A stretch of 20,000 nucleotides of DNA from an uncultured virus (IMG/VR IMGVR_UViG_3300049793_000365) (IMGVR_UViG_3300049793_000365), one strand, 5' to 3'; shown: positions 3,056 to 19,587, counted from the stretch's first letter. Numbers and translations: made by a program. The notes: a model not told the origin generated them from the letters alone.

Positions 3056-3400
3056 ATGCCTACATTTAATTCGTTTAAGGAATGGTACAGTGAGAACGGT
3101 ACTAAAGAAGAACTAAGTCAATTGAGTAATCTTGAAGTACTCAATGGTTTGAAATCAATAGTGGATATAAAGTCAGCTTTAATCCAATCTCAGAAATATG
3201 AAATGGCGGCTAGAGCCAGGGATTTAGAAAAAACATTATACGACTACATCAACGAACATTACTGTAAACTCGGACTTGGGTTTACTTGTTATAATATGAC
3301 TGATGTACAGTCTATTATTAAATATGAGCTTAAGATAGTTAACCGAAATGAAAGTATCGATAGAATAACAAAAAATGGGTTGTCAGAAGAAGAAGATTGA
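3056..3400 (+). CDS. Small protein with a UVR (UvrB/UvrC; ClpC middle-domain-like) motif and a C-terminal-motif variant
   Basis: IKSALIQSQKYEMAARARDLEKTL fits the UVR pattern K..A...Q.(F/Y)E.AA..RD; near-terminal RNESIDRIT. Confidence 0.65.
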   Translation: MPTFNSFKEWYSENGTKEELSQLSNLEVLNGLKSIVDIKSALIQSQKYEMAARARDLEKTLYDYINEHYCKLGLGFTCYNMTDVQSIIKYELKIVNRNESIDRITKNGLSEEED

Positions 3401-3548
3401 TAAAATAAAAGCTATGTTAATCATAGCCAACGCGAATAAACCAACACAAAAGAGCTTCAAAAGAAGAGAAATTAATTATTATTTCTGTACGGAGTGTAAG
3501 TCATATCACACTACATCACAGAAGCGCAGAAATAGCTCTGTCTCTTAG
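3375..3548 (+). CDS. Small basic Zn-finger-like protein (57 aa), below the ORF-track cutoff
   Basis: Manual translation MGCQKKKIDKIKAMLIIANANKPTQKSFKRREINYYFCTECKSYHTTSQKRRNSSVS*; C...CxxC.xxH ligand set; fills an otherwise empty gap. Confidence 0.65.
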   Translation: MGCQKKKIDKIKAMLIIANANKPTQKSFKRREINYYFCTECKSYHTTSQKRRNSSVS

Positions 3549-4070
3549 TTGTTCTTGGTCTGTATAAAACCAAATGGTTTTCTCATAAGCCATTTTCATT
3601 TGCTTCCAATCTGGAACTGATGTCCACTTACCAAATATATAAACTTCACATGAACCCCAAGGTATCACTGAGTTTATTTCAGAACCTCTTTCAATAATTG
3701 AGCAATAAATACCGTCTTTGCTATATTTAGGATTAGCATTACATAGATATTCAACATTCCACATCCATGTGCGTGGTCTATCTACAAATCTAAACTCAAC
3801 TGTTTGGTCACACGGTAGAGTTTCTACGTGCATTGCTATTTTTGGATATGAGATTTTGTGTATTTTTCTATCATTATCCCAGTGAGATACTTGGTATAAA
3901 AATGTTTCACCGAAACTAAGATTGAATAATTTTGGAATAGTATTTTTACCCCAGAAACTATTCTTATCGAAGATAGGATCTATATCAGCTAATTCAATAT
4001 ATTTGTTTTTACTTTCGAGGGCTTTGTTGTATGCGTCTTTCGACATTTTACTATATTCTTCGTCACTCAT
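3516..4070 (-). CDS. Hypothetical protein with C-terminal motif (LRDRAISALL*)
   Basis: 184-aa ORF, last gene of the minus-strand operon starting at 5627. Confidence 0.75.
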   Translation of the reverse strand: MSDEEYSKMSKDAYNKALESKNKYIELADIDPIFDKNSFWGKNTIPKLFNLSFGETFLYQVSHWDNDRKIHKISYPKIAMHVETLPCDQTVEFRFVDRPRTWMWNVEYLCNANPKYSKDGIYCSIIERGSEINSVIPWGSCEVYIFGKWTSVPDWKQMKMAYEKTIWFYTDQEQLRDRAISALL

Positions 4071-4516
4071 ATTATCTCATTCAATTTTATATCCCTAAAT
4101 TTACTTCTAACGCTGGGTAAGTCGTTAAAGCACACTTTCTTTCCCTTGTCCGGGTTAATTGCAAAGAATGGTTGACCCCATTCTCTATATTCACTATCTG
4201 TACATAAGAAGCGATGCCAATATGTATATAAGTTATTACCACAATCGTTTAGATATCTACCAACAATTCCTTGTCTGTGTACCTTTTCTTCGAGAAAAAT
4301 ATCTTGTTTCAAAACCTCATAACAATATTGAAGAAAGAGCTTTTGACACTTTTCTACTACCTCAGGACTGTGTTGAATATACCCGGAACCATTCGCAAAA
4401 CTTGGTGTATCGGATTTATTTAAATCACTGTCGATTAATGATGTCAGACCTATAACCATTGGTGCTAATATCTCACAACATCTTTTATCTATCTCTTTGT
4501 TATCAATTTTTTGCAT
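4067..4516 (-). CDS. Hypothetical protein with C-terminal motif (FRDIKLNEII*)
   Basis: 149-aa ORF overlapping both neighbours in the operon. Confidence 0.75.
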   Translation of the reverse strand: MQKIDNKEIDKRCCEILAPMVIGLTSLIDSDLNKSDTPSFANGSGYIQHSPEVVEKCQKLFLQYCYEVLKQDIFLEEKVHRQGIVGRYLNDCGNNLYTYWHRFLCTDSEYREWGQPFFAINPDKGKKVCFNDLPSVRSKFRDIKLNEII

Positions 4517-4941
4517 AATTCTATATTTATGTTCTGAAATTCATTTAAAACAGGGGTAGCTTCTTCGAGAGTAACCCATTTAAAGTCATCCATTTCGTGA
4601 AATACTGCTTTACCATCGCGATATACCCAAGAGTGACACTTGAGTTCATGTTTGTCAAAAGAATCGTTTACCTTAACTAAAAATCCCTTTAGATACTTAT
4701 TAGTATTTCTATATCTGACATAATCAAATGGGACTACCGTTTCAATTTTAGAACTGAAGTCTTTTAAATCAACGTTTGTCTCTTCCCATAATTCTCTCAC
4801 TGCTACTTCATACTCAGAAGTTTCACCATCATCAATTCTACCTTTTGGTATTGACCAAACATTTGGACCATGATTCGTAGGATGAGCAATAAGTAGCTTA
4901 TTCTCATTATTGAACAAATATATACCGCAACTAATCTTCAT
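4489..4941 (-). CDS. NUDIX hydrolase
   Basis: WSIPKGRIDDGETSEYEVAVRELWEETNV Nudix box; C-terminal EMDDFKWV. Confidence 0.9.
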   Translation of the reverse strand: MKISCGIYLFNNENKLLIAHPTNHGPNVWSIPKGRIDDGETSEYEVAVRELWEETNVDLKDFSSKIETVVPFDYVRYRNTNKYLKGFLVKVNDSFDKHELKCHSWVYRDGKAVFHEMDDFKWVTLEEATPVLNEFQNINIELCKKLITKR

Positions 4942-5470
4942 CTATTATACTGTTTACTTTTAATTCTCTTAACAATGCTTCAAGGTTGACTTTATATGAG
5001 TCAACTGGTATGTCATTTCTGTACATATATATCGTTAATAGCTTATCGTCACTATATGTACTTACAACATTTATATCCTTCTCAAATGGTGGATAGTGCC
5101 AATTGAATGTATAGTCAAATTTTTCATCAAGTTTTTTAACTACATATTTAAATACAGACCTCAGACCACCAAATGCTAAATCATTATCTACAAGTGTTAT
5201 AAACCCACCAACGGTTTCGTCTATATAATCTGTTATTTGTAATTCTCTCATTATTTTTGAATTATGTTTCTTTACCCATCCCAACGTTTCGAATTTACTA
5301 TTGAGCAACATATCCAAACTATATTTATATGGCGTTGCCATTTGAGTATCTTTGAAAGAATACGTTTCATCCGGATTCATAAATAATATAGAGCCATCAG
5401 ATATCCTTCGTATCTGTGCCGCTACATATCCGAATTTCTCGGCTTCTTCTTTAGATTTAAACCCACTCAT
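4931..5470 (-). CDS. Hypothetical protein with C-terminal motif (LRELKVNSIIDED*); start revised to ATG 5470
   Basis: The track start (GTG 5506) lies well inside the upstream small ORF; ATG at 5470 (MSGFKSKEE...) overlaps only its last codons, like other coupled genes here. Confidence 0.7.
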   Translation of the reverse strand: MSGFKSKEEAEKFGYVAAQIRRISDGSILFMNPDETYSFKDTQMATPYKYSLDMLLNSKFETLGWVKKHNSKIMRELQITDYIDETVGGFITLVDNDLAFGGLRSVFKYVVKKLDEKFDYTFNWHYPPFEKDINVVSTYSDDKLLTIYMYRNDIPVDSYKVNLEALLRELKVNSIIDED

Positions 5471-5627
5471 TCTTGTGTTTTGGTTTACGTGTATATGTTT
5501 TGGCACTTTTGTGTACGCGATTCATATTACAACGTGTACCTTCTTCTATTTCAATGTTTCGCCTAACAGTACGCTCTATATTGAGAATTTGGTCTTTTGT
5601 TATTTTTATATTTTTGAGCTTTTTCAT
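5457..5627 (-). CDS. Small basic protein (56 aa) with ArfA-like C-terminal motif, below the ORF-track cutoff
   Basis: Manual translation MKKLKNIKITKDQILNIERTVRRNIEIEEGTRCNMNRVHKSAKTYTRKPKHKNEWV*; directly downstream of the promoter at 5646-5677; AAGGTGAG just upstream of the ATG. Confidence 0.75.
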   Translation of the reverse strand: MKKLKNIKITKDQILNIERTVRRNIEIEEGTRCNMNRVHKSAKTYTRKPKHKNEWV

Positions 5628-5737: not shown

Positions 5738-6139
5738 ATGATTAAGGTAAAGAATTCACAATTAGACAGCGAAACATTAGACGTAATCAATAAAATTATT
5801 GACCAGAAAATAAAAGCCTCTGCTGCTTTCAAGTTAGCTCGAATAGTTAAAGATTTGTCTTCTATTGTTGAAGAGAAGATGAAGCAAGAAAAGCGCATTC
5901 TTGAGAAATGGGCAGAAAAAGATGCTGATGGTACAATTTTATCGCCACAAGATGCTGATGGTAAGGTAATCCCTAACTCAGTTAAGATTATGGATATGAA
6001 CGCATTCAACCAGGATATGATTGATTTGATGGAAGTTGAAAATGAACTTACTCACACATTATTAAAATTTGATGAGCTTGGTTTAGAAACAGATATCACA
6101 ACAAAAGAATTACTTAAAATTGACTTTTTATTTGAATAA
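5738..6139 (+). CDS. Phage helical protein, possibly DUF1617-like (often near tail genes)
   Basis: 133-aa ORF; AAFKLARIVKDL...EKRILEKWAEKDADG pattern; family assignment from memory only. Confidence 0.55.
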   Translation: MIKVKNSQLDSETLDVINKIIDQKIKASAAFKLARIVKDLSSIVEEKMKQEKRILEKWAEKDADGTILSPQDADGKVIPNSVKIMDMNAFNQDMIDLMEVENELTHTLLKFDELGLETDITTKELLKIDFLFE

Positions 6140-6603
6140 TGAATCAAATATTATCTACTTATGAGAAGCATAGGGATGATGTCTACAAAGCAATGAATAA
6201 GAATCCAGATGCCGTCTATTATTTTAAAGACGGCATTCTTTTTTTGATACTTCATTCTGAACACTCATCTAATCGAAAATATGGTTTTACAAAGGTTCCA
6301 TTGTCGGAGTATTTCGATGATTGGTACAATACCGTTAATGGTATGATTGATTATATATGTACATCAAGTGTTGTTTCGCAATTCGGTGGTGTTCATAAAT
6401 ACACTACCTACGATTTTGACTCACTTGTTGAACTTGAATCATTTCTTAAAGAGAAATATATGACACATAATATAACCATATCATATTTTGACTGTCTAAA
6501 ACACAATGATGTACAAGATATTATACAATATCGAATAGTAGCAAATCTATTTGAGACCAAACAGAAAACCAGAAAGGTTAAACTGGAAGACTTATTGAGT
6601 TGA
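6139..6603 (+). CDS. Hypothetical protein with C-terminal motif (TRKVKLEDLLS*)
   Basis: 154-aa ORF; TAATG coupling to the previous gene. Confidence 0.75.
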   Translation: MNQILSTYEKHRDDVYKAMNKNPDAVYYFKDGILFLILHSEHSSNRKYGFTKVPLSEYFDDWYNTVNGMIDYICTSSVVSQFGGVHKYTTYDFDSLVELESFLKEKYMTHNITISYFDCLKHNDVQDIIQYRIVANLFETKQKTRKVKLEDLLS

Positions 6604-6641: not shown

Positions 6642-8078
6642 ATGTCAACATATAGTATAAATAATGGTCAAATCACAGAAGCAGTAAAACTGAACAATTT
6701 ACAAGATGTATTTATTGGTTTACCTGATAATACCTCTAAGTTAATTGCTCCAGTTGATGTTAGAAATGCTGTTTACACAACATGGGAGAATATCTTATTG
6801 AAGTCAACCATAGTTGGTTCTTCATCTGTTGTATATACTGGCTATGATTTATCTAATCTGAGACAGAAATTTTACTTCGGTAAAAAGACTAACTTGGGTA
6901 TGGATATTATGACCAATACTTTATTAAGTGGTACTATATCAGATGTTGACGTATTTTTTTACAATAATAAATCTGATGTTGATACAAATCAGAATACTAA
7001 GATTGCTTTCTTAGCTGGTACAACATCTTATAACTTTGCTAATGCTCCATATATCGAAGCAAGACAAGTTACTTTCCCATCTTCTATCGATTTATACATA
7101 AATAACACTGGTTATATCGGATTCGGTATGACTGCTGGTAAGATTGATATTGATGCGGCTTTGGTAAGCATAAAGGGTGTTAGATATCCAGTTGCTCCTA
7201 CTAGTAGTAGTTTGTTTTTAACAACGGACATTGCTGGTAATGCTTTTTGGGCATCACCTACTATCACAAATATTAGTAATCCAGGCGCAACAGTTTCAAT
7301 TGTTGGTTCTCCTGTTTTAGTTAATGGTTATCCATTAGAATATACAAACGCATTTCCGTCACAAGTTACGGTTGGTGGTATACCAGCGGGTACTACATTT
7401 AGTAATGTATCTGTTTCACAGATGTTTGATAGTATTTTCTATCCTTACTTAACACCAATTATATCATTGAACACAAGTACATTGGTTTATGAATATGGTT
7501 CATCTTTTGCACCACAATTATTCTGGTCAATACAAGCAAGAACTTTAGATGTTACATCAGCTACGTTAAGTGGTGCTGTATCTCCTATATTACCTGGTGT
7601 TTCAGCGTCAAGTACGTTATCAGGAACATCGTCATCATTGAGTATAACAACTACTAACCCAACAGCAAGTTGGACGTTAGACGTATCTGATGGTACTGTT
7701 TCAGTTGCTACAACAATCGTAGCTACAAGAGTATTTCCATTCTTTTATGGTATGACATCAGCCGCTACAATGAGTGGTGTTACATTATACACTAATTTAA
7801 CAAAAGATATAGATGGCTTTAGTGATAAAGCATATTTATATAGTGGTATAAATGAGTTTATGTATTTTGCATATCCATCAACATATGGTACTGTATCTGA
7901 AATATTTGACCAGAACTTATATCAAGTGTATAATCATGCTGGTGGTGGAGCATTCACATATTCATTATCAACAGTAGCAAGTACAGGATTAGGTAGTAAC
8001 TGGTCTACAAGCTTTTATGTATATAAAACAAATTTATCAACATCTAACTACGGATACCAATTCCAGTTTGTGTTTTAA
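6642..8078 (+). CDS. Putative virion structural protein (tail fibre/appendage-like)
   Basis: 478 aa, very rich in S/T/G/aromatics and poor in charge; fibre-like LTTDIAGNAFW segment; VGGIPAGTTFSN...MFDSIFYPY segment; Ig-like C-terminal half. Confidence 0.65.
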   Translation: MSTYSINNGQITEAVKLNNLQDVFIGLPDNTSKLIAPVDVRNAVYTTWENILLKSTIVGSSSVVYTGYDLSNLRQKFYFGKKTNLGMDIMTNTLLSGTISDVDVFFYNNKSDVDTNQNTKIAFLAGTTSYNFANAPYIEARQVTFPSSIDLYINNTGYIGFGMTAGKIDIDAALVSIKGVRYPVAPTSSSLFLTTDIAGNAFWASPTITNISNPGATVSIVGSPVLVNGYPLEYTNAFPSQVTVGGIPAGTTFSNVSVSQMFDSIFYPYLTPIISLNTSTLVYEYGSSFAPQLFWSIQARTLDVTSATLSGAVSPILPGVSASSTLSGTSSSLSITTTNPTASWTLDVSDGTVSVATTIVATRVFPFFYGMTSAATMSGVTLYTNLTKDIDGFSDKAYLYSGINEFMYFAYPSTYGTVSEIFDQNLYQVYNHAGGGAFTYSLSTVASTGLGSNWSTSFYVYKTNLSTSNYGYQFQFVF

Positions 8079-8091: not shown

Positions 8092-9516
8092 ATGGCAGGA
8101 ATTAATATAATAGATGGATTTAATGTAAACGCTTCTTCCCCGGTAGATTATAGGATAGTTGCGTCAAATTCTACTGACCGTGATGCTATTTTTTACAAGT
8201 ATGATGGTTTGAAAGTTTTCCAATTAACAGATAGAAGAACATATACTTATAATTCAATAAGTGCTACATGGAGTACTGATATTGTTGGTACTGGTAATAC
8301 ATTAGCCATGTTTGGTGCGAGTGGTTCAAGTCTAATTAACTCAGTAGTAAGTCAATCTGTAAGTGGTGTTAATTCAACTCTAACAGTCAGTGGTGTTAAT
8401 ACAACATTGATGTCAACTGGTACTGTTTCTATAATAGGTTCTGCCGGACTTTTCAATTTAGTAAGTTTGTTTCCTCTTGTTATTACTTATACTAGAGGTG
8501 GTAACGTTAGGTTAATTGGTGGTTCAGCATTTAATGCTAGTTACTCTGGTCATGCTTACGTTTGTGGTGGTGGTCCAAGTGGTAATGTTTATATTGGTTA
8601 TGATGGTGCTTCATTTATTGGTAAAATTGGTATTAAAACATCAACATTTGATGCTGGTATTGATTATCAAATTGCTCCAACGACTGCATTCAATAGCTTC
8701 GTTAGATTTAAACAATATACTGAAACTACTGCTAATGCGTATTTCTATAATAGCACAACAAGTTTAACATCTTCTGCTTATATCAGAAGTACTAATAATT
8801 ATTCTACACATTTGGTTCCTGATTATACATGGTATAACAATGACCAAGTAGGTATATTTCACCCAGCAGCTAATACAATGGGTTTCTCTATTGCTGGTGC
8901 TACTGCGGCTGTAATTAATGCTAATAGACAAATTGAAATAAACAGATCCACTGTTGCTTTACCATCCCTTGCTATTAGCGGAGATTTAAATACTGGTATA
9001 ACCCAACTTACATCTGATGGTGGTGATACATTAGCATTGGTAGTAGGTGGTGCTACTAAAATTAAATTACATACATTTGAATTAAGTGCTACGATACATA
9101 ATACAAGTGGTGCTACTGGTAGTAATTTGAATCCAGCTATTGGTTCTGGTACATATATACCAGTTGTGTCATCTACTGCAAATATAGACGCAACATCAGT
9201 TGGTGCTTTTCAATGGTCTCGTGTTGGTAACGTAGTAACTGTATCTGGTCAAGTCGATATTACACCGACTGCTACATCTACAACAACATCACTTTTATTA
9301 AGTTTACCAGTTGGGTCAGCAATGGCATCATTTGGTAGATTAGCTGGATGTGCTACATCAATAGATGCTTTCACAACTGCTCCGACAAACATTGCGGCTG
9401 CTGTATATGCTGAAACAAGCAAGGCTAGAGTAAAATTTAGTTCTACTACAACTACTATGTGGTCTTGGTTTGTACACTACACATATTGCGTAGTTGATGA
9501 AAGCTTATTATTCTAA
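8092..9516 (+). CDS. Putative tail fibre / receptor-binding-like structural protein
   Basis: 474 aa, S/T/G/A-rich; repeated P.......D..(V/T)GI segments (PDYTWYNNDQVGIFHP, PSLAISGDLNTGITQ); C-terminal WSRVGNVVTV...LSLPV beta-sandwich pattern typical of fibre tips. Confidence 0.7.
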   Translation: MAGINIIDGFNVNASSPVDYRIVASNSTDRDAIFYKYDGLKVFQLTDRRTYTYNSISATWSTDIVGTGNTLAMFGASGSSLINSVVSQSVSGVNSTLTVSGVNTTLMSTGTVSIIGSAGLFNLVSLFPLVITYTRGGNVRLIGGSAFNASYSGHAYVCGGGPSGNVYIGYDGASFIGKIGIKTSTFDAGIDYQIAPTTAFNSFVRFKQYTETTANAYFYNSTTSLTSSAYIRSTNNYSTHLVPDYTWYNNDQVGIFHPAANTMGFSIAGATAAVINANRQIEINRSTVALPSLAISGDLNTGITQLTSDGGDTLALVVGGATKIKLHTFELSATIHNTSGATGSNLNPAIGSGTYIPVVSSTANIDATSVGAFQWSRVGNVVTVSGQVDITPTATSTTTSLLLSLPVGSAMASFGRLAGCATSIDAFTTAPTNIAAAVYAETSKARVKFSSTTTTMWSWFVHYTYCVVDESLLF

Positions 9517-10200
9517 TTAATCGTCGATTTTTTCAAACCACCAATTGAAGTAAATCCAATTGCTACCAACTAACTGATAATATTTATTAGAGATTGAAAA
9601 TACGATTCTATTATCGAAAGCTCTTTCGAGTTTAATAGCCGTACCACTACTTAGAATTTTCTCTTCACCTGTATTTATGTCTATGGCAATAATCTCTTTC
9701 AGAGAACGCCATTCACCTGCTACTGGTGTTAAGAATTTTTTAATAGTTTTTAGAATAATTCCTTTGGTTCTGATTATCCATTCCTTTGTAATATGAAGAT
9801 TGTTTTGGTCTTTGAATACTTCACTTGTCAATGATGCGTCTCTTGTTGTGATATTTCTAATAACACCCCAATAGTCATTCTCATCAATTATAAATTCTAT
9901 GTAAACATCCCAATCACCAGCATTATTTGGTAATATTCTTAATATTTTAAGCGCAGAAATTTCTTGTCTATCTGACATCATAGCTTTTCGTAAAGCCGCC
10001 CATGATTGTGTGTTCATAACACCACCCATAATTGAATTAAGTCTTGCGTTAGCTTGTCTAATTAAATCTTGATGCTTATCAAAAGCATCCGCTGATAGTT
10101 GTGCATCATCTACATGAGTAGAAGCTTGAACTGAATCGGAATTCATTCTTTGGTTGTTAAACTCAGTAAATTCGAGTATCAGATTAGGTTTGCGTTTCAT
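9517..10200 (-). CDS. Hypothetical protein, putative late/virion protein with N-terminal motif variant (MKRKPNLILEFTEFN)
   Basis: 227-aa ORF; TAATATATA 8 nt upstream on the minus strand. Confidence 0.75.
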   Translation of the reverse strand: MKRKPNLILEFTEFNNQRMNSDSVQASTHVDDAQLSADAFDKHQDLIRQANARLNSIMGGVMNTQSWAALRKAMMSDRQEISALKILRILPNNAGDWDVYIEFIIDENDYWGVIRNITTRDASLTSEVFKDQNNLHITKEWIIRTKGIILKTIKKFLTPVAGEWRSLKEIIAIDINTGEEKILSSGTAIKLERAFDNRIVFSISNKYYQLVGSNWIYFNWWFEKIDD

Positions 10201-10220: not shown

Positions 10221-11027
10221 ATGCTCAAGCGATATTTCGACTTTATAAATGAATCTTTAATCACTGGTGAATTACCACGCGATTATGAGTTGGATTTAGA
10301 CTTCATAAAACATTCATTTGAAGATTTTGAGATAAAAGTTAGAATTATGGATGATTCATACCATGATAATGAAGGTAGATTAGTACACGAAGGTGATAAA
10401 AAGTATATAGACCGAACGGATGTATATGTAACGAAAGACATATTCATAGATGGTGCTGATATAAATAGAGATGAAGTTAAATCAATTGTCGTAAAGCTAC
10501 TTAGAAGATTAGAAATAGATGGATATAGAGTAAATAGATTTAATGGGACTATTGGTGGTGATACGATAAACTACATAAGATTGGTTATCTATCCAAAAGT
10601 AACTCCAGTAAAAGAAGCAATTGAAGTACCGAGTATTACACCCATTAAAGGGGAATTGCCAACTACTGAATATTTACGTGCCTTAACTACTGAAATAGAA
10701 GATGAAGGTGTGTATGTTAATTTCTCTAATCCAATACATTCTTCTGATGGTATGACTGTTGATTTGAATAGAGTTAATAGGTTACTAATGAATGGTGAGT
10801 ATGCTGGTACGCAGAAGAGAGACATTTTATCTCGTAAATACTACTTGTGTTATAATGTTATGTTTTCAGTTGATTCACCAGAGGATATTAATTCATATAA
10901 TACATACATTAATAAAATTATTAAAAAGCTTGAACATGATGGCTTTAAATGTGCGTTTTATAATGATTTGGGTAGTGGTATTAAGGATTTATTGAAGACA
11001 GTTATAATTTACCCGAAAGTAAAATAA
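10221..11027 (+). CDS. Hypothetical protein with N-terminal MLKRYFDFINES motif and an internal two-domain duplication
   Basis: 268 aa; KLLRRLEIDGY...LVIYPKV repeated as KIIKKLEHDGF...VIIYPKV. Confidence 0.75.
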   Translation: MLKRYFDFINESLITGELPRDYELDLDFIKHSFEDFEIKVRIMDDSYHDNEGRLVHEGDKKYIDRTDVYVTKDIFIDGADINRDEVKSIVVKLLRRLEIDGYRVNRFNGTIGGDTINYIRLVIYPKVTPVKEAIEVPSITPIKGELPTTEYLRALTTEIEDEGVYVNFSNPIHSSDGMTVDLNRVNRLLMNGEYAGTQKRDILSRKYYLCYNVMFSVDSPEDINSYNTYINKIIKKLEHDGFKCAFYNDLGSGIKDLLKTVIIYPKVK

Positions 11028-11364: not shown

Positions 11365-12653
11365 GATTAAAACGATATCACAATTTTAAATTAAATGAGG
11401 CATTGGATGAGAAGTACATCACAGAAGATGAACTTGAATATGCATTGCAGGGAATTAGAGATATCGATGATGATATAACTGACGTTGATGTTTCTTTTAA
11501 ATTAATAAAAGAATTAGATGGTGTTCAGAAAGATTCACAATACGTTATGAATTTTCCTGGTCATCAGGATAAAGAAACAGAATTGAAGTATGACTTCTAT
11601 GATTCGGTTGTACCAGGTACAGAAGGTTATATAGCATATGAAGTTACTATAACATACGATTATATTTCAAAAAGTAAACCATCCGACACTTTCATAATTA
11701 GTGATGATGACTTTGATTTATCTGAGGAAATGGAATCTGAGGTTAATCGTTTTATAAAAAGAGTTAGAGCTGATTTTAAAGTTAATTTACTTGATTGGTA
11801 TATAAAAGACACGAGTAATTTATCTAGTGATATTCATCCAGTAATAACAGTATATTTCTATAAGCCTTTTCAGATTAAAATTACAGTAGAAGATTTTGTT
11901 AAATTCTATGACATAACTAATTATGTAGTTGAGAATAATAAACTATACATGGATGTATTATTATCAGATGTAGTTCCTGTTTTTATTAAAGATGATAAGC
12001 AAGAAGAGTGGTTATGTAAACGAGTTATTGATGATGATTATTTTTGGGATTACACTACCAGCGCGAGTGATGTTGAATATGCTTTGAATAAAGAACACAC
12101 TGAAATGTTGATTAAGTATTTCGCTGATACATACTTTGATGGTAGTATTGAAGCACTGAACGAAGAGTTTGATAGCGACTTTGAAAAAATGCTTGAGGAA
12201 TATAGTTCAAGTGGGGATTCTAATGTAGAAGTATTATTTGATACGTATAGGAATATGTATTGTGATTCGTTACAAAATAAACATACCGAAGAATTAGAAA
12301 CTGAATTTTTTAGATACATTGAAAAGAATTATAGCTTAAACGGTAGAATTATTGAAAAGGATATCGAACAAACTATTGAGGTTAAATATAAAACCAAGGA
12401 TGATAATGGTAAACTTATCGACAAATGGCATAAAGAAACAGTTTATACAGACAAATATAGATTTGAATTTGATTTTGATTCACTTAAATATTATGATATG
12501 GATAGAATAAAGGGTGATGGTCTAAGCCTATGGGAAGTATGGCGCGAAGCAAACGACCCAGAAAGAACTACATTAGAACCTTATTACTCAGACCACGGTG
12601 ATGTAAACTATCCTGACTTTAACACAGAGATTGCATACATTTTTAAAGAATAG
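11361..12653 (+). CDS. Large acidic protein with N-terminal MRLKRYHNFKLNEA motif
   Basis: 430-aa D/E-rich ORF; ATGA overlap with the previous gene. Confidence 0.75.
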   Translation: MRLKRYHNFKLNEALDEKYITEDELEYALQGIRDIDDDITDVDVSFKLIKELDGVQKDSQYVMNFPGHQDKETELKYDFYDSVVPGTEGYIAYEVTITYDYISKSKPSDTFIISDDDFDLSEEMESEVNRFIKRVRADFKVNLLDWYIKDTSNLSSDIHPVITVYFYKPFQIKITVEDFVKFYDITNYVVENNKLYMDVLLSDVVPVFIKDDKQEEWLCKRVIDDDYFWDYTTSASDVEYALNKEHTEMLIKYFADTYFDGSIEALNEEFDSDFEKMLEEYSSSGDSNVEVLFDTYRNMYCDSLQNKHTEELETEFFRYIEKNYSLNGRIIEKDIEQTIEVKYKTKDDNGKLIDKWHKETVYTDKYRFEFDFDSLKYYDMDRIKGDGLSLWEVWREANDPERTTLEPYYSDHGDVNYPDFNTEIAYIFKE

Positions 12654-12706: not shown

Positions 12707-14635
12707 ATGAGTCTACTAGAAAAAATTAAGAAAAACTGGTCTGAAGGTCACAAAGATATGACTATTCAGGAGTACCTTGAGCTTTGTAAAAAAGATAAGG
12801 ATATATATGCTTCTCCCGCAGAGAGAATGTTACGTACAATTGGGGAACCAGAACTAATTGATACCAAAAGTGATCCAAGACTGAGCCGAATTTTCTCAAA
12901 TAAGCTCATTAAACGCTACCCAGCATTTGCTGAATTTTATGGAATGGAAGATACAATCGAACAAATCGTATCTTTCTTCAAACACGCATCACAGGGCTTA
13001 GAAGAAAAGAAACAAATTCTTTATTTACTAGGACCAGTAGGTGGTGGTAAGTCATCATTAGCTGAGAAGTTGAAACAGTTAATGGCTGATTCACATTTAT
13101 ACGCACTTGTAGGTGAAGATGGTGAAGTTTCTCCAATTTGGGAATCACCGCTTGGTCTATTTTCAGATTATAGAGAATTATTATTAGAAGAATACGGAAT
13201 CGAAAAACGTTATATCCCATCTTGTCCATCTCCTTGGGCGGTTAAAAGATTAAAAGAATATAATGGCGACCTTACTAAGTTCAAAGTTAGAAAACTTAAA
13301 TCTTCAATCCAAGAACAAATTGGTATTGCTAAGACAGAACCAGGTGATGATAACAATCAGGATATATCAGCATTAGTTGGTAAGATTGATGTTAGAAAAC
13401 TTGGTCAGTTTGCTCAGAACGACCCGGATGCTTATAACTTCTCTGGTGCTTTATGTAAAGCAAACCAAGGTGTTATGGAATTCGTAGAGATGTTCAAGGC
13501 ACCTATAAAAATGTTACACCCGTTGTTAACAGCAACACAAGAAGGTAACTATAATGGTACAGAAGCATTATCAGCTATTCCATTTCAAGGAATTATCTTA
13601 GCTCACTCAAATGAATCAGAGTGGGAATCATTTTCAAATGATAAAAAGAACGAAGCCTTTTTAGACAGGGTTTACATCGTTCGCGTTCCATATTGCTTAC
13701 GCTTAACAGAAGAGGTAGAAATTTACAAAAAGTTATTACGTAGTTCTTCATTAGGCAACGCGGCTTGCGCTCCACAGACACTTGATTTGTTGGCACAGTT
13801 CACAGTAATGACTCGTTTAAAAAGACCGGAGAACTCATTATTATCATCTAAGATGAGAGTTTACAATGGTGAGTCATTAAAAGAAACGGATCCTCAAGCT
13901 AAATCATTACAAGAATATCGTGATGATGGTGGTATCACTGAGGGTATGAATGGTATTTCTACACGTTTTGCTTTCAAAGTATTATCTAAAGTTTTCAACT
14001 ACGATAATGAAGAGATAGCAGCTAATCCAATACATTTAATGTATGTACTTGAACAAGAAATTATCAAGTTACAATTAAATAAGGATCTTGAAGATTACTA
14101 CATCGCAATTCTTAAAGATAACATCAAGACAAAATATGCTGAGTTCATCGGTGAAGAAATTCAAAAAGCATACGTTGATTCATACCAAGAGTATGGTCAG
14201 AATATGTTCGAGAAATACTTCTTATACGCTGACCACTGGTGTCGTGACGAAGATTACCGCGATGGTAATACAGGTGAAACATTTGACCGTCAGGTTTTAA
14301 ATGCTGAACTTGAAAAGGTTGAAAAGTCTGCTGGTATTTCTAATCCTAAGGATTTCAGAAATGATATCACTCAGTTTGTTTGGAGAACAAAAGCTTCTAA
14401 CAATGGTAAAATGCCACGTTGGGATGCTTATGAGAAAATTAGAAATGTAATTGAGAAAAGATTATTTTCTAAAACAGAAGATATTATTCCTGTTATCTCT
14501 TTCGCTACAAAATCTTCTAAGGATGAAGAAAAGAAACACGCTGATTTCATAAATCGCATGGAAGAAAGAGGATATACTCGTAAACAAATTCAACTTGTTG
14601 TTGAGTGGTATTTAAGAGTTAGAAAAAATTCATAA
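12707..14635 (+). CDS. yeaG: PrkA/YeaG family AAA+ ATPase (annotated Ser/Thr kinase)
   Basis: EFYGMEDTIEQIV, LEEKKQILYLLGPVGGGKSS (Walker A), KTEPGDDNNQDISALVGK, ANQGVMEFVEMFK, ILAHSNESEW, EAFLDR, VPYCL, GISTRF. Confidence 0.96.
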   Translation: MSLLEKIKKNWSEGHKDMTIQEYLELCKKDKDIYASPAERMLRTIGEPELIDTKSDPRLSRIFSNKLIKRYPAFAEFYGMEDTIEQIVSFFKHASQGLEEKKQILYLLGPVGGGKSSLAEKLKQLMADSHLYALVGEDGEVSPIWESPLGLFSDYRELLLEEYGIEKRYIPSCPSPWAVKRLKEYNGDLTKFKVRKLKSSIQEQIGIAKTEPGDDNNQDISALVGKIDVRKLGQFAQNDPDAYNFSGALCKANQGVMEFVEMFKAPIKMLHPLLTATQEGNYNGTEALSAIPFQGIILAHSNESEWESFSNDKKNEAFLDRVYIVRVPYCLRLTEEVEIYKKLLRSSSLGNAACAPQTLDLLAQFTVMTRLKRPENSLLSSKMRVYNGESLKETDPQAKSLQEYRDDGGITEGMNGISTRFAFKVLSKVFNYDNEEIAANPIHLMYVLEQEIIKLQLNKDLEDYYIAILKDNIKTKYAEFIGEEIQKAYVDSYQEYGQNMFEKYFLYADHWCRDEDYRDGNTGETFDRQVLNAELEKVEKSAGISNPKDFRNDITQFVWRTKASNNGKMPRWDAYEKIRNVIEKRLFSKTEDIIPVISFATKSSKDEEKKHADFINRMEERGYTRKQIQLVVEWYLRVRKNS

Positions 14636-14642
14636 TAATATA

Positions 14643-15032
14643 ATGGGTGAGATTCGTAAATCAGATATTGTAAATGGTGATGTAGCTAAGTATGCTGATT
14701 ACATAACCGATGCCGCTAATAACGCTCTTCAATATTGTGACTATTTGGTACATATTAATTTAAGTGTTAAGGACTTTATCGTAAAATATCACGATAAGGC
14801 AATGAGTGAGACTATAAGAACGATGTCACCAACTGAACTCGAAGAATATGCCGCTTTATTAAATGATATGATAACATTTCAAGAGATTACTGCCGGTAAG
14901 TTGGATAAACTTATCGGTACTCTTGATAAAGATTTATATAATGATTTTAGAGAAGCATATATGGATGAACAATCAGCTCTTAAGAAATACAAAAGAGATG
15001 TTAAAATTAACAAACTAACGGATGGCGACTAA
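14643..15032 (+). CDS. Hypothetical protein inserted between yeaG and yeaH, with C-terminal motif (KRDVKINKLTDGD*)
   Basis: 129-aa ORF; YADYI/YCDYL repeat at 14-residue spacing. Confidence 0.75.
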   Translation: MGEIRKSDIVNGDVAKYADYITDAANNALQYCDYLVHINLSVKDFIVKYHDKAMSETIRTMSPTELEEYAALLNDMITFQEITAGKLDKLIGTLDKDLYNDFREAYMDEQSALKKYKRDVKINKLTDGD

Positions 15033-16290
15033 TATAGTAGATAGAAGAAAAAATCCATCGGGTAAATCGGTTCCTAATCGTCAAAAATTCTTGAAAAGAA
15101 TTGAAGACCAAATAAAGAAAGCTATACCAAATATTGTTGATTCAAATTCAATAGATGAGATAACTAAGGGTAAGGGTAGCATTAAAATTCCAGTTAAGGG
15201 TATCTCTGAGCCGGAATTTGGCTATGACCATTCAAGTGGTGATAAGAAATATGTACATCCCGGTAATAAGAAATATAGTGAAGGAGATAAGATAAAGAAA
15301 CCACAAGGTGGTCAAGGTAAGGGTGGTCGTCAAGGCTCACGCGATGCTGGTGCGACAGAAGATGAGTTTACGGTATCTATATCACGAGATGAGTTTCTTG
15401 ATTTCTTTTTTAAAGATTTAGAATTACCAGATATGGTAAGAAAGCAGTTGACTAAAGTAGTTGATTGGAAACAAAAGAGAGCAGGGTACACCACTGTTGG
15501 TAATCCGTCTCGATTGAATATTGTTAAATCCTATACCAAGTCATTGACGAGGCGCATAGCTATGTGTTCTTATTATGACTCTGAAATTAAAAGAATAGAA
15601 GATAAATTAAAAACAAAAGGTTTATCAAGCGATGAGATATTAAAGTTAGAACAACAGTTAGAAGACTTTAAAAGATTGAAGTTGGCTATTCCATTTATGG
15701 ATGACATTGACTTACGTTACAATAACTTTGATAAATTTCCTGTTCCAAGTACACAAGCAGTAATGTTTTGTATAATGGATGTATCTGGTTCAATGGGTCA
15801 AAACGAAAAGGATATAGCTAAAAGATTTTTCTTATTGTTGTATATGTTCTTGATGAAAGAATATGAAAAGATAGAGATAGTTTATATTAGACATCACACA
15901 GAAGCAAAGGAAGTATCTGAACAAGAATTCTTTGATTCGAGAGAGTCGGGTGGTACCGAAGTATTACCAGCCTTAGAAATGATGAATAATATTATCAACG
16001 AAAGATATAGTGGTGGTTGGAATATTTACGCATCTCAAATTTCTGATGGTGATGTATGGGGTAGACAAGATGCTGATGATTGTGCTAAATTCCTTAATTC
16101 GGAAGTACTTAAGAAAGTACAGTACATGATTTATGTAGAAGTTTGTAGAGAGAGTATGGGAGATTTATGGATGACATACTCCGATGTTAAGGGTAAAAAT
16201 TCAAACTTTGAAATGGGTAAAATTAATAAGGTTAATGAAATATGGCAAGTCTTCCAAGACTTCTTTAGAAAAAAAGTAACTACCAAGTGA
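15022..16290 (+). CDS. yeaH: YeaH/YhbH (DUF444) family vWA-domain protein
   Basis: IVDRR.NP.GKS..NRQKFL, HPGNKKY..GD, G-rich linker, DLELP, PFMDDIDLRY, AVMFCIMDVSGSM (MIDAS), IRHHTEAKEV, ESGGT, WNIY..Q.SDGD. Confidence 0.95.
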   Translation: MATNIVDRRKNPSGKSVPNRQKFLKRIEDQIKKAIPNIVDSNSIDEITKGKGSIKIPVKGISEPEFGYDHSSGDKKYVHPGNKKYSEGDKIKKPQGGQGKGGRQGSRDAGATEDEFTVSISRDEFLDFFFKDLELPDMVRKQLTKVVDWKQKRAGYTTVGNPSRLNIVKSYTKSLTRRIAMCSYYDSEIKRIEDKLKTKGLSSDEILKLEQQLEDFKRLKLAIPFMDDIDLRYNNFDKFPVPSTQAVMFCIMDVSGSMGQNEKDIAKRFFLLLYMFLMKEYEKIEIVYIRHHTEAKEVSEQEFFDSRESGGTEVLPALEMMNNIINERYSGGWNIYASQISDGDVWGRQDADDCAKFLNSEVLKKVQYMIYVEVCRESMGDLWMTYSDVKGKNSNFEMGKINKVNEIWQVFQDFFRKKVTTK

Positions 16291-16610
16291 TGGCTATGAC
16301 ACCCTTTTATATAAGACCAAATCCTGGTTACAGTTATGATCCATGTGAATCAGATAGATATGAGTTCACTCAAGCTATTAAAAAACTTGGATTTGAATTA
16401 ACTAATCCGGAAGTGGATCTTATGAATTTTACATCAGAATGTACGGCGTTATATGTTACTGAGAATAACTTCGATGCTATATTGGTTGAGAAGAATAAGT
16501 ACACTTATATAAATATAGGTAGTAAACGCATAGAGAGTGGTGAATTTAAAAATAGCAGAATATTTTTAAGAGATTTAAAGTTGAAGAAATTAATAAATGA
16601 GCAAGCTTGA
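16287..16610 (+). CDS. Hypothetical protein with C-terminal motif (LRDLKLKKLINEQA*)
   Basis: 107-aa ORF (GTG 16287 or ATG 16290) coupled to the yeaH stop. Confidence 0.7.
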   Translation: MMAMTPFYIRPNPGYSYDPCESDRYEFTQAIKKLGFELTNPEVDLMNFTSECTALYVTENNFDAILVEKNKYTYINIGSKRIESGEFKNSRIFLRDLKLKKLINEQA

Positions 16611-16800
16611 TTTACATGGGGTTAGACACATTGATGTGGATGAGTTGGTTGAAGATTTTATATTAACCAATGAATTACCACTCTATATCATAACTGGTAA
16701 CTCACACGTAATGAAAGATAAAGTTATACGCTTATTGGATAAACATAATTTTAAATATGTAATTCGAGCGCATAATTTAGGAGAAATAGTTGTATTATAA
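16597..16800 (+). CDS. Stand-alone Smr (small MutS-related) domain protein
   Basis: LDLHGV...YIITGNS..MKDKV...L...NLGEIVV; 67 aa. Confidence 0.85.
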   Translation: MSKLDLHGVRHIDVDELVEDFILTNELPLYIITGNSHVMKDKVIRLLDKHNFKYVIRAHNLGEIVVL

Positions 16801-17042
16801 TGGCAAATATACCAGGTAGTATTTTAGTAACAGGATTAGCAGCACCATCTGATAATATAATGATGTGTGACTCAACGGGTAATATATCTTGGGGTAGACC
16901 AAGTAATAACTTACTAATGCGTGATGAGATTACGGGTGAGATATATGAATTGATTGTAAGCAACGGTAAATTAGATATAAGAGCTACTTCTAAGCAAGGC
17001 ATTAGACAACAAAAGATTGATAAAATAGTAGAAGATGAGTAA
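16800..17042 (+). CDS. Small protein with fibre-like segments and C-terminal motif (IRQQKIDKIVEDE*)
   Basis: 80-aa ORF; MMCDSTGNISWGRP resembles LTTDIAGNAFWASP in the 478-aa structural-like protein. Confidence 0.7.
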   Translation: MANIPGSILVTGLAAPSDNIMMCDSTGNISWGRPSNNLLMRDEITGEIYELIVSNGKLDIRATSKQGIRQQKIDKIVEDE

Positions 17043-17286
17043 GAGTGGTTACCATTTAGCTAAAATTCAGAAAGGTAAATTGGGCGAAATCTCAAAGATA
17101 CAAGAAGAATTAGATGAGCTTAAAGATGCTGAGTTACAGGAGTCAAAGGTAATGATTTCAGTAGAGTTATCTGATTTATATGGCGCACTAGAAGCTTACG
17201 CAATTAAACAAGGTTTAACAATGGATGATTTGAAAAAGTTTTCCATAATAACAAAAAGAGCATTCACAAATGGCAAAAGGAAATGA
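17035..17286 (+). CDS. MazG-like (all-alpha NTP pyrophosphatase) protein
   Basis: KIQEELDELKDA...VELSDL matches the EExxE...ExxD metal-binding pattern. Confidence 0.7.
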   Translation: MSKSGYHLAKIQKGKLGEISKIQEELDELKDAELQESKVMISVELSDLYGALEAYAIKQGLTMDDLKKFSIITKRAFTNGKRK

Positions 17287-17485
17287 TGATAAGAGACAAC
17301 GTGAGCTTGTAAATAAATTGATACAAGCGGCTAATCAGCTTAGTAAACAAAATGAGGGAAAGGCTGACCACGTTATTGTTTCTCCTGATTTATATGAGAA
17401 GATAGAAGAAATGAAAGAGTATATTGAAATTCTTGAGCGAATGAAAAATCGTAATAAAGGAATTGATGATGTACTTAACGGTTAA
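17270..17485 (+). CDS. Small protein with C-terminal motif (NRNKGIDDVLNG*)
   Basis: 71-aa ORF, last gene of the operon; convergent with 17482-18207. Confidence 0.7.
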   Translation: MAKGNDDKRQRELVNKLIQAANQLSKQNEGKADHVIVSPDLYEKIEEMKEYIEILERMKNRNKGIDDVLNG

Positions 17486-18207
17486 GGTCTAATCGCAAAT
17501 GTTTCACCTTCTTCTAATTGAAATTCTAATATAACTTTGGTATCTTGAATATTGATATCAATGATTCTATTATTAGACTTCAACTCTTTTTCCATTTTTA
17601 ATATCTGTCTTGCTGTTGGTGTTTCACCACCAAGTCCTAAACCACCTATATCCATTGTTAATTGAATAACATTATTACCCTCTTCTTCATAGTCCATCAT
17701 TTCAAGAGATTGACTAAATTCTCCCAACCAAGTATTTAATTTCTTCTTACTTATAGTAACTCTATTATTCTTTGTATCAACCCAATCTAATTCTGATTTA
17801 TCAGTGATGCCTTTTCTTGGTACGATTAGTCTTATATAATAAGGACCAGGTGAACCATCAGCGTTACCATCACCATTATCGTGACTTAATGTACACTCAT
17901 ATCCAGAACTGATTATCTTCTTCATTGCGGTGTATAAATGTTTATAAACACCAGCTAAATAGTTACTATCTTCTATATAATCACTGACATCATTAATAGA
18001 TAACTCAGTTTTCTTTTTATTCCTTTTGGGAAACATAAATTGAAGTATGAAAATTCTTTCATCCTTAAGCCAACTATCCATTGATGGGTCATAGTCTTCA
18101 ATTAAAGCAAGCAAAGCTGGTTCAACGATATCATTGAGTTCCTTTGCCTCTTTCGCGACTCCTGTATTTTCACTTTCAAATACTTGAAATGATTTAATCT
18201 TTTTCAT
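17482..18207 (-). CDS. Hypothetical protein with N-terminal MKKIKSFQVFES motif
   Basis: 241-aa ORF; TAATATATA 5 nt upstream. Confidence 0.75.
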   Translation of the reverse strand: MKKIKSFQVFESENTGVAKEAKELNDIVEPALLALIEDYDPSMDSWLKDERIFILQFMFPKRNKKKTELSINDVSDYIEDSNYLAGVYKHLYTAMKKIISSGYECTLSHDNGDGNADGSPGPYYIRLIVPRKGITDKSELDWVDTKNNRVTISKKKLNTWLGEFSQSLEMMDYEEEGNNVIQLTMDIGGLGLGGETPTARQILKMEKELKSNNRIIDINIQDTKVILEFQLEEGETFAIRP

Positions 18208-18212: not shown

Positions 18213-18221
18213 TATATATTA
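18213..18221 (-). promoter_or_regulatory. Putative late promoter TAATATATA
   Basis: Plus-strand TATATATTA; 5 nt before the minus-strand ATG at 18207. Confidence 0.65.
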
Positions 18222-18263
18222 AAAACGATTAAACTTTATTCAATTTTGGTCTAAAATAAAGAC

Positions 18264-18821
18264 ATGATAAATTATAGGATTTTAATACAGGCGTTAGATT
18301 ACTACCAGTCTATGGGCTTCACTCATAAAGAAGTTGATTGGTTAGTTGAAGAATCAATTGCGAATATAACCAAGCCAGATTTTGTTAGAAACTTCTACAT
18401 AGATGACAAAGCATTGGTTGGTTCAGCAGAACAATCATTTTTACAAATGATAACACACAACGAATTACCACCAGGGCAGTATGTGGCATTGACACCATGC
18501 TTCAGAGATGATGTTGAAGATTTGACACATAAGAGATATTTTATGAAAGTAGAATTAATAGATACATTAAATACCTCAGAAGAAAGATTGAATGAAATAG
18601 TTAATATATGTGTTGACTTCTTCAAACAATTTACTGATGTGAGGATAGAGAAAACTGGTGATTTGATGTACGACATTGTAGACGCTAAAACGGGTATTGA
18701 GCTTGGTTCCTATGGTATAAGACATCATCAGTCAGTTAATACGTGGATATATGCTACGGGTGTAGCAGAACCTCGTTTATCAACCGTAATAGACCTAAAC
18801 AATGGCGTGTCCAAACTGTAA
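18264..18821 (+). CDS. Minimal class II aminoacyl-tRNA-synthetase-like (SerRS-like) catalytic domain, no tRNA-binding domain
   Basis: LVGSAEQ (cf. SerRS TAE loop), motif 2 TPCFRDD...H.RYFMKVEL, IELGS, motif 3 ATGVAEPRL; only 185 aa. Confidence 0.8.
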   Translation: MINYRILIQALDYYQSMGFTHKEVDWLVEESIANITKPDFVRNFYIDDKALVGSAEQSFLQMITHNELPPGQYVALTPCFRDDVEDLTHKRYFMKVELIDTLNTSEERLNEIVNICVDFFKQFTDVRIEKTGDLMYDIVDAKTGIELGSYGIRHHQSVNTWIYATGVAEPRLSTVIDLNNGVSKL

Positions 18822-18996
18822 GAAAGATTTATCGATGTATCAATATACTTGGATAGACCACACACCACACGAATACATAGAAGATTGTCATCATTGTGGA
18901 TTTAGCATCTATACGGTAGAAGGAAAGAAAACTGTTTATAACCCAGTAATGGATAAAATACGGTTTAGAGATGAGAAAATAGATAAGATAAATTAA
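18802..18996 (+). CDS. Zn-ribbon protein with C-terminal motif (FRDEKIDKIN*)
   Basis: CPNC...CHHC; 64 aa. Confidence 0.7.
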   Translation: MACPNCKKDLSMYQYTWIDHTPHEYIEDCHHCGFSIYTVEGKKTVYNPVMDKIRFRDEKIDKIN

Positions 18997-19295
18997 TGGA
19001 GATATTGTATTTAACTGGTAAGTATTCATTAATGGGTGATAAGAATGAAATTTCTCTTTATATAGATGGGGCTGAAACACCAATAAGCTTGAAGAGAGGT
19101 TTAATCTACACAAAAAGCATAAAGGATAAACATCAGATTTATTATTACAACAAGCTAATGGAAACTGTTTATAATGAATGTGACCCATTTGATTTTATGG
19201 ATGCTAAATATTACAGTAGCATATTACCAAATATGCTTAAGTGGTACAGAGAGTACATAGTCGATACTAAATTGAAGCAATTACTGAATGATTGA
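18996..19295 (+). CDS. Hypothetical protein with C-terminal motif variant (IVDTKLKQLLND*)
   Basis: 99-aa ORF; TAATG coupling. Confidence 0.7.
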   Translation: MEILYLTGKYSLMGDKNEISLYIDGAETPISLKRGLIYTKSIKDKHQIYYYNKLMETVYNECDPFDFMDAKYYSSILPNMLKWYREYIVDTKLKQLLND

Positions 19296-19587
19296 GGAAT
19301 TACCGATTGATAAAAATGAAAGAAGAGAATATCTTAGAAAAAGAGGTTTGGTTTTATCCGAATCGCTATTATCTAAAACATTCGCTATGTGTGATTCACC
19401 TATGTTTAGCATGGGTGGTAGTATTTTGAGCTGTAATACCTGGGCTGGTGAGCCAAAATTAGATGCCAATGAAATATTTGTAATATACAAGAGAGAAGGA
19501 GATACATACAGGGGTACTATTGTACCAAGGTCTATATTAAGTTTGGATAAAATTAGAGAAGACCAAATAAATAAGATATTTGAATGA
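19288..19587 (+). CDS. Hypothetical protein with C-terminal motif (IREDQINKIFE*)
   Basis: 99-aa ORF overlapping both neighbours. Confidence 0.7.
   Translation: MIEELPIDKNERREYLRKRGLVLSESLLSKTFAMCDSPMFSMGGSILSCNTWAGEPKLDANEIFVIYKREGDTYRGTIVPRSILSLDKIREDQINKIFE

Follow-up and report, generated by a model that had tools for sequence, protein, structure and literature searches.

Why should a dozen small proteins that share no other evident feature end in the same short peptide? The question is raised by a 20,000-nucleotide stretch of DNA from the uncultured virus IMGVR_UViG_3300049793_000365 (the window, with positions counted from its first letter), in which genes lying between positions 3,056 and 19,587 carry a C-terminal tag of the pattern Φ-R-[DEN]-x-K-[IL]-x-x-[IL]-[ILF]. 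The answer towards which we lean is that the tag acts as an address, a helix by which its carriers dock onto a single reader protein that co-evolves with it. An earlier note, made from the sequence alone, had listed twelve such C-termini, and every one of them was recovered when the translations were reread. Its count of about twelve tagged proteins has to be divided into ten clear copies and two degenerate ones, at 3056 and 3516. That note labelled minus-strand genes by their high coordinate; genes are given here by both coordinates.

The gene calls in the window are heuristic; a C-terminus, however, is set by the stop codon alone. Because circularity was to be avoided, the scoring model was built on relatives only: its 13 columns were trained on 172 tails from the closest named record, uncultured phage LR745206.1, and from a second record, G001, all matching R..K[IL], a pattern found de novo in those two genomes, and no window data entered the model. 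Among the 30 genes whose end lies inside the window, 10 carry a tag no more than 12 residues from the stop at 8 bits or above, 9 at 10 bits or above and 8 at 12 bits or above. Not one of 5304 internal window positions reaches 8, 10 or 12 bits, and 500 shuffles of the last 30 residues averaged 0.09 genes at 8 bits and never yielded more than 2. The scores are bimodal: ten genes lie between 9.3 and 22.1 bits, two are borderline (3056-3400 at 5.6 and 3516-4070 at 6.7), and the other 18 score -1.8 or less. No tag is found on the enzymes that end inside the window (the ribonucleotide reductase (RNR) small subunit, a NUDIX protein, PrkA, DUF444/YeaH and a protein resembling histidyl-tRNA synthetase (HisRS)), nor on any of seven window proteins that share a quite different, N-terminal motif, an exclusion that the earlier note had remarked and that also holds in LR745206.1. 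The observation is confirmed.

The highest-scoring copy, RDIKLNEII (4070..4096, minus strand, 22.1 bits), forms the last residues of the 149-amino acid (aa) product of gene 4067-4516. Also on the minus strand, RELKVNSII followed by DED (4943..4969, 10.7 bits) ends the 191-aa product of 4931-5506, whose 55% identical orthologue P0078 keeps the tag and ends RRDYKINKIINED. The plus strand carries RKVKLEDLL then S (6571..6597, 16.0 bits; gene 6139-6603, 154 aa), RDVKINKLT then DGD (14994..15020, 17.4 bits; gene 14643-15032, 129 aa, between prkA and yeaH), RDLKLKKLI then NEQA (16569..16595, 18.8 bits; gene 16287-16610, 107 aa), RQQKIDKIV then EDE (17004..17030, 17.7 bits; gene 16800-17042, 80 aa), RNKGIDDVL then NG (17450..17476, 9.3 bits; gene 17270-17485, 71 aa), RDEKIDKIN at the very end of a Cys-rich protein (18967..18993, 18.4 bits; gene 18802-18996, 64 aa), VDTKLKQLL then ND, with Val in place of Arg (19260..19286, 12.6 bits; gene 18996-19295, 99 aa), and REDQINKIF then E (19555..19581, 12.7 bits; gene 19288-19587, 99 aa). 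The two borderline cases are the degenerate core RDRAISALL (3519..3545, minus strand; gene 3516-4070, 184 aa) and the weak, tag-like RNESIDRIT, nine residues before the stop (3344..3370, plus strand; gene 3056-3400, 114 aa). Both are backed by homologues that carry the tag: in a full HMMER search, 48 of 65 cluster representatives of the 3516-4070 family, query included, are tagged at 8 bits or above, and for 3056-3400 there is a similar mini-protein in LR745206.1, at 296085-296384, that is tagged. LR745206.1 orthologues exist for two of the twelve window proteins (38% and 32% identity), both tagged, and for none of the other ten.

Some of these genes have features of their own. Just upstream of 3056-3400 and of a TATTTTTG motif (3043) lie three tandem copies of AAAAAGATAG (2996-3025), an array that could be an operator or a repeat. 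Gene 17270-17485 ends convergently with 17482-18207 on the opposite strand, and its product shows two sub-threshold Pfam likenesses, to the PhdYeFM antitoxin (E = 0.00066) and to Linocin_M18, the encapsulin shell family (E = 0.008, 15.9 bits against a cut-off of 24.3). The search for related loci returned no relatives of the protein encoded by 14643-15032. The gap between prkA and yeaH, where present, holds a tagged open reading frame (ORF), of 129 aa in the window and of 36-46 aa in nine loci of relatives (L001, L002, L004, L005, L007-L009, L011 and L016). The ending KYSR common to these mini-ORFs was rejected as part of the tag, being a shifted reading of conserved N-terminal codons of yeaH. 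In LR745206.1 the product of this ORF looks, by eye, like the start of a putative sheath protein of 1295 aa.

How widely is the tag distributed? For replication, a model was derived from the twelve window instances and applied to 81 further loci, of which 80 are PrkA-anchored loci from IMG/VR and one is from LR745206.1, with 1792 called ORFs in all. Of these ORFs, 36 attain 12 bits near their C-terminus, where shuffles give 0.8-1.4, and that score is attained at 16 of 386,264 internal positions and by 5 of 5104 rejected ORFs. The hits are limited to L001, L002, L004-L012, L015 and L016, with one in L019. The tag is missing from L003, L013 and L014 (41, 17 and 27 genes), from 63 further PrkA loci (L018 and L020-L081) and, among the latter, from L020-L022 and L038, which are equally AT-rich (GC 0.27-0.29). 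Genome-wide, 137 of the 938 genes of LR745206.1 (634,780 bp) are tagged, where 2.7 are expected from the internal rate, and 46 of the 392 genes of G001 (281 kb), where 1.6 are expected; a second model at 8 bits finds 171 of 938 in LR745206.1. Tagged genes thus make up 12-18% of all genes in the clade, or about one protein in six. The distant PrkA phages G006 (342 kb) and G007 (323 kb) have one tagged gene in 433 (0.70 expected) and one in 394 (0.27 expected), and no other C-terminal tag stood out in them. When the last 18 residues were scanned without bias for gapped three-residue patterns, R..KI ranked first both in LR745206.1 (83 genes against 4.0 expected) and in G001 (26 against 1.3). The tag is shown to be confined to one clade of T4-like huge phages.

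A recurrent peptide in an AT-rich genome could in principle be the by-product of base composition or of a nucleotide signal, such as the next gene's start or a promoter. Codon usage in the window tags (Arg as AGA eight times, AGG, CGA and CGT, with varying Ile, Leu and Val codons) had led the earlier note to place the constraint at the protein level, and the larger sample agrees: synonymous codon use at the R, D/E/N, K and most I/L positions matches genome-wide use in LR745206.1. The Arg of the tag, for instance, is encoded by AGA 96 times (104.4 expected), by AGG 23 times (16.0 expected) and by CGN 17 times, and chi-square p values range from 0.1 to 0.9 over R, D, E, N and K (R 0.39, D 0.81, K 0.11). 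Only 8 of 1435 non-gene ORFs carry the motif. For genes 60-150 aa long, the share with a tag is 21 of 99 where the next gene converges, 17 of 81 where a gap of more than 30 nt follows and 15 of 94 where the gap is 1-30 nt. Since it is found at convergent and wide-gap ends, it is not a by-product of a downstream start, in agreement with the earlier note. It is commoner where the next gene abuts or overlaps (60 of 149), and there is a mild excess of A-ending codons at tag positions 8-9 (p = 0.0006 and 0.012), which together indicate a weak nucleotide-level overlay. With AT-rich loci tagless, shuffles giving 0.09 genes where 10 are observed, and an Rfam search of the window empty, a nucleotide origin is largely refuted and we give it next to no credence. 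Among 157 reciprocal-best pairs of LR745206.1 and G001 proteins, both members are tagged in 21, a single member in 5 and neither in 131; in the doubly tagged pairs, R is 100% and K 86% identical, the x positions 33-43% and whole proteins 44%. Selection is shown to act on the amino acids of the tag.

By itself the tag makes up an amphipathic helix, about 13 residues long and often N-capped, of the form [ST]-x-E-Φ-R-[DEN]-x-K-[IL]-x-x-[IL]-[ILF]; the LR745206.1 consensus is [KIL]-[SQE]-x-[IL]-R-[DEN]-x-K-[IL]-[NKD]-x-[IL]-[LIF]-[KND]. All 10 clear window tags, and by the definition used all 137 in LR745206.1, lie no more than 12 residues from the C-terminus. In LR745206.1 between 0 and 11 residues follow the tag: for 100 of the 137, only 0-3 residues separate it from the stop, and 12 of 137 finish at the last residue itself. 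Hit density there is 11.9 per 1000 positions in the last 12 residues, 0.30 at residues 13-30 and about 0.1 further in, a 130-fold enrichment in the last 12 residues. Some 20 strong copies nonetheless lie inside proteins, so a free C-terminus is not required. The carriers are small: 114 of 137 are 60-149 aa long, and 34 of 101 proteins of 80-99 aa are tagged, against none of 110 proteins of 300-499 aa. Tagged genes tend to be neighbours: 39 pairs of them are adjacent, where shuffles give 20.1.

The bodies to which the tag is attached are almost all unrelated. For 135 of the 137 in LR745206.1, BLASTP finds no relative (E < 1e-3) in the rest of the tagged set, in keeping with the mutual unrelatedness seen in the window; only 6 have a Pfam match at 1e-3, and none of the 7 tagged proteins among 276 large ones scanned has a Pfam family at 1e-6. 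The UVR family PF02151 matches one of the 137, in its body (residues 19-41), and none in the tag. Parts of the LR745206.1 capsid protein (residues 494-539 and 344-530) are copied in tagged mini-proteins of that phage, and a third mini-protein has a sub-threshold Pfam match to Gp23. Repeats of a 707-aa protein encoded beside the capsid gene are copied as well, and one mini-protein resembles, by eye only, the N-terminus of the 1295-aa putative tail sheath protein. The family of 4067-4516 shows the tag to be an add-on: five of ten aligned members end with a linker and the tag (..LPSVRSKF-RDIKLNEII), and the five more distant homologues stop about 20 residues earlier, directly after the conserved domain, which identifies the tag as an appended, protein-level module. 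It is portable, modular and clade-specific.

A module of this kind could be a structural or self-association element, that is, a capping helix, a short coiled-coil or an oligomerisation device with no dedicated reader. The heptad-like hydrophobic spacing and the internal copies are compatible with this, as is the AlphaFold2 (AF2) model of 3516-4070 (mean predicted confidence, pLDDT, 93.4), in which the tag is a helix at residues 172-183 after an 8-residue coil, set with its linker beside a long N-terminal helix at pLDDT 91-94, so that it may pack on its own body rather than be free. Foldseek gave no match for this model at E <= 0.001, and an all-against-all structural aligner found only a generic small beta-barrel (best Z 5.5, root-mean-square deviation 3.6, 78 aligned residues). 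The AF2 model of 4067-4516 (mean pLDDT 81.9), however, places the tag helix at pLDDT 58 after a body at 84-91, and the distant homologues of that protein fold without the tag. The evidence from models on whether the helix is free is therefore mixed. Also against a purely structural role is that a single pattern of charge and hydrophobicity, with Arg in 136 and Lys in 110 of 137 tags, is kept on 135 unrelated bodies, and that a whole lineage has changed the same position in concert. In the sister locus L019 the variant R-[DE]-x-R-[FL]-x-x-[FIL]-L ends 5 of 29 genes and occurs at 0 of 4454 internal positions; all five of these tags have Arg at position 4, as do only 4 of 137 in LR745206.1, and Phe is frequent at position 5. 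Such concerted change across a lineage is what a co-evolving reader predicts, and we regard the structural explanation as rather improbable.

When are the tagged proteins made? The motif AATATATA/TATATATA stands at 101 of 323 gene heads in LR745206.1, against 5.7 expected, and AATATATA precedes the genes for capsid, portal, terminase, putative sheath, PrkA, the ClpC-like unfoldase and DnaK. A second, host-type motif, TA..TTTG, matches the Bacteroides -7 consensus. With each gene assigned to the nearest upstream motif by short consensus match, 81 tagged genes fall behind TA..TTTG and 38 behind AATATATA, compared with 91 and 138 of the other genes of up to 150 aa and 74 and 230 of the larger genes (Fisher p = 5.7e-7 for tagged versus other small genes and 3.8e-14 for tagged versus all others). 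From these short motifs we infer that the tagged proteins are mostly early. The T4 late-promoter string TATAAATA is not enriched (3 of 171 tagged genes and 23 of 423 large genes). Copies of AATATATA also occur between genes in the window, at 5708, 6611, 10207 and, on the minus strand, 10216 and 18220, where they precede 5738, 6642, the divergent pair 9517-10200 (minus strand) and 10221-11027, and 17482-18207 (minus strand).

Promoter class bears directly on the idea that the tag serves packaging, loading small proteins into the prohead for ejection as a C-terminal equivalent of the T4 capsid targeting sequence (CTS) or of encapsulin cargo-loading peptides. The carriers are numerous, small, fast-evolving orphans with one shared signal, as an effector repertoire would be, and some of the tagged mini-proteins copy pieces of the capsid and of the neighbouring 707-aa protein. 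There is precedent in the diverse internal proteins of T4, whose sole common feature, in the available text of PMC3012670, is a short conserved targeting peptide that addresses them to one destination. Tagged genes, however, mostly lie behind the host-type motif, whereas the capsid, portal, terminase and putative sheath genes lie behind AATATATA. These phages moreover already have a separate motif that looks like a signal of this kind. Seven window proteins start with M-[KR]-x-[IL]-[KR]-x-[FY]-x-x-F-E-S or looser forms (genes 970-1404, 1401-1961, 9517-10200 on the minus strand, 10221-11027, 11038-11364, 11361-12653 and 17482-18207 on the minus strand), a start that looks like the T4 CTS, with a site for the prohead protease following Glu. 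The 18 strict matches to this motif in LR745206.1 include no tagged protein, and all 12 of the assignable genes stand behind AATATATA. Packaging by the tag is accordingly a slim prospect.

If the tag is a docking helix, what reads it? One possibility is a hub of the host, such as its protease, RNA polymerase or ribosome, onto which small early proteins would be docked. The early promoter class of the tagged genes fits this, and clade specificity could follow host range, but it is difficult to see why over 100 different proteins should converge on a single site of the host, and we hold a host hub to be about as doubtful as packaging. Another candidate, proposed in the earlier note, is the phage's own PrkA (YeaG)/YeaH pair. 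In its favour, the tagged gene 14643-15032 sits between the two genes, and a tagged mini-ORF is likewise placed in nine loci of relatives. YeaG is needed for bulk proteolysis on starvation in E. coli, in the available text of PMC13684143, and B. subtilis PrkA is reported as an ATP-dependent protease in that of PMC9512850. Against it, phages G006 and G007 have PrkA and YeaH with a single tag each, and L003, L013 and L014, with PrkA 74-76% identical to that of the window, are tagless, as are the 63 further PrkA loci; together these argue against PrkA/YeaH as the reader, a role that now appears very unlikely. DnaK was considered since LR745206.1 encodes DnaK, DnaJ and GrpE among tagged genes, and was set aside: a helical i, i+3, i+4 pattern with acidic residues seems ill-suited to a DnaK-binding peptide. 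Comparative genomics singled out no clade-specific reader either, since 146 LR745206.1 proteins are present in G001 and absent from G006 and G007, too many because the tagless phages are too distant.

The best single candidate, and a doubtful one, is the ClpC-like/ClpP protease encoded by the clade itself. Two ClpP genes are present in LR745206.1, and neither the unfoldase nor ClpP is encoded inside the window. The ClpC-like unfoldase of the tag clade is 701-729 aa long in five records (W01, G001, G002, G003 and G011), and PF07724 was found above its cut-off in five tag-clade records (4/5 in one search, 1/5 in another), the misses being fragments of 26-68 kb. The Clp N-domain is absent from 5/5 tag-clade unfoldases and present in the 4/4 aligned ones (738-783 aa) from tagless phages. 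In place of this domain of about 145 residues, the first 45 or so residues form an acidic, Lys/Ser-rich tail. Tag-clade unfoldases (L117-L120, L177) start with a short conserved motif and then an acidic run, ..Y-x-x-N-[VL]-P-x-[IV]-[KR]-x-A-[LI]-E-D-D-D-D... Within a GVGF stretch the G-F is invariant; this stretch presumably corresponds to the ClpP-docking loops of other unfoldases, which suggests that the enzyme works with ClpP. ClpC, in the available text of PMC12583610, rests inactive via its coiled-coil M-domains, and partners activate it via the N-domain, which stabilises that state. A copy of the UVR/middle-domain segment of the clade's own unfoldase is found in the window, at residues 27-61 of 3056-3400 (3134..3238, plus strand): by local BLASTP it is 46% identical over 35 residues to the tag-clade unfoldase and scores 32 bits, whereas its match to unfoldases of tagless phages does not exceed 20 bits, and LR745206.1 has a tagged counterpart.

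We picture the docking tag as follows. The tag is appended, after a short linker, to the C-termini of small, fast-evolving, unrelated proteins, and its Ile/Leu face, flanked by the near-invariant Arg and by the Lys, would plug into a shared reader. The preferred reader would be the ClpC-like unfoldase with its two ClpP; in all tag-clade records looked at, this unfoldase has lost the N-domain that normally docks adaptors and substrates. The tagged proteins, mostly behind host-type (early) promoters, might then be cleared on schedule, or might be adaptors that bring targets to the protease. Carried further, the tag could be the address of a phage targeted-proteolysis system in which more than 100 early baits or adaptors plug into a deregulated, N-domain-less ClpC-like/ClpP protease that destroys chosen proteins, including host defence sensors lured by tagged pieces of capsid, sheath, scaffold and unfoldase, the baits being cleared afterwards; in this full form we think the scheme unlikely to hold. 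Several observations weigh against the docking tag and its preferred reader. Clp unfoldases occur in tagless PrkA phages too, only one phylogenetic contrast underlies the association of the tag with N-domain loss, and no test made yielded a reader protein. The linker and tag helix are well ordered in the 3516-4070 model, the strong internal copies stand away from C-termini, the A-ending codon excess and the bias towards abutting genes point to a minor nucleotide-level component, and the 38 tagged genes behind AATATATA share that motif with structural genes.

The setting of the window is that of a very large phage. Its proteins map to a 711,805-bp contig, which places this phage among the largest phage genomes on record, and close homologues map to one of 709,085 bp; a part of the prkA-yeaH query matches LR745206.1 at 75.7% nucleotide identity. 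The T4-like character of LR745206.1 shows in its Gp23 capsid protein, gp20 portal, T4-type terminase and gp32, and the phage also encodes many aminoacyl-tRNA synthetases, EF-G, the DnaK, DnaJ and GrpE chaperones, ClpP and the ClpC-like unfoldase. Its Bacteroidota-style genes, with CHU_C sorting domains and TonB-dependent receptors, suggest a host in the Bacteroidota. The window itself has a GC content of 0.29-0.36 across its 20 kb. Its recognisable products are a methionyl-tRNA synthetase (MetRS) fragment, the RNR small subunit, the NUDIX protein, the HisRS-like protein, a dCMP deaminase, PrkA (12707-14635) and DUF444/YeaH (15022-16290); many of the remaining genes are orphans, and tRNA and Rfam scans of the window were both empty. 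Two adjacent genes, 6642-8078 and 8092-9516, encode fibre-like, Ser/Thr-rich proteins of 474-478 aa without a Pfam family. The first is related to three LR745206.1 proteins, two of them adjacent at 258246-261328, and the second has only a weak match, to LR745206.1 gene 256716-258227, the neighbour of that pair. Lying behind a AATATATA motif, they are probably fibre or surface proteins.

If one helix is indeed read by one partner, hundreds of small orphan genes of huge phages become a single testable system. The tag provides a handle on the reader, through peptide pull-down and tag-GFP fusions, and a rule for spotting members in metagenomes, and it ties in with the tagged mini-copies of capsid, sheath and unfoldase pieces. 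Were the reader a protease, Bacteroidota would gain a small tag for degradation or docking that can be moved between proteins. As an address label it seems not to have been described before: a literature search, mostly without subscription journals and including capsid-targeting sequences in giant phages, returned no description of such a tag, and the available text of the jumbo-phage review PMC7824862 mentions only ClpP and ClpS and no such tag.

Which known systems does it resemble? Like the T4 CTS, it is a short peptide shared by diverse small phage proteins, in a T4-like lineage. The CTS, however, is N-terminal and sends late proteins into the scaffolding core, whereas the tag is C-terminal, sits on 12-18% of genes and is mostly behind host-type promoter motifs. 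Encapsulin cargo-loading peptides are short C-terminal peptides that load unrelated cargo into a shell of the HK97 fold, the fold family of the phage capsid protein (Gp23), but their sequence is unrelated to the tag, and the promoter class argues against late, capsid-linked expression. The ClpX-binding tail of SspB and the ssrA tag are short C-terminal peptides that link many proteins to one AAA+ protease, the ssrA-type degron acting at the extreme C-terminus with a free carboxylate. Among Clp docking systems there is also a phage precedent, an adaptor-like protein of SPO1, in the available text of PMC6873191. The tag clade does encode a ClpC-like unfoldase and ClpP, as expected of a Clp docking tail or degron; unlike these, the tag is helical, is followed by variable residues, has internal copies and reaches the last residue in only 12 of 137 cases, and unlike with MecA-type ClpC adaptors, the clade's unfoldase lacks the N-domain where known adaptors dock. 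In poxviruses, many divergent ankyrin proteins share a C-terminal PRANC/F-box module that plugs into a degradation machine. Those modules are folded domains of about 40-50 residues that engage host ubiquitin ligases, whereas the tag is a 13-residue helix in a bacterial virus.

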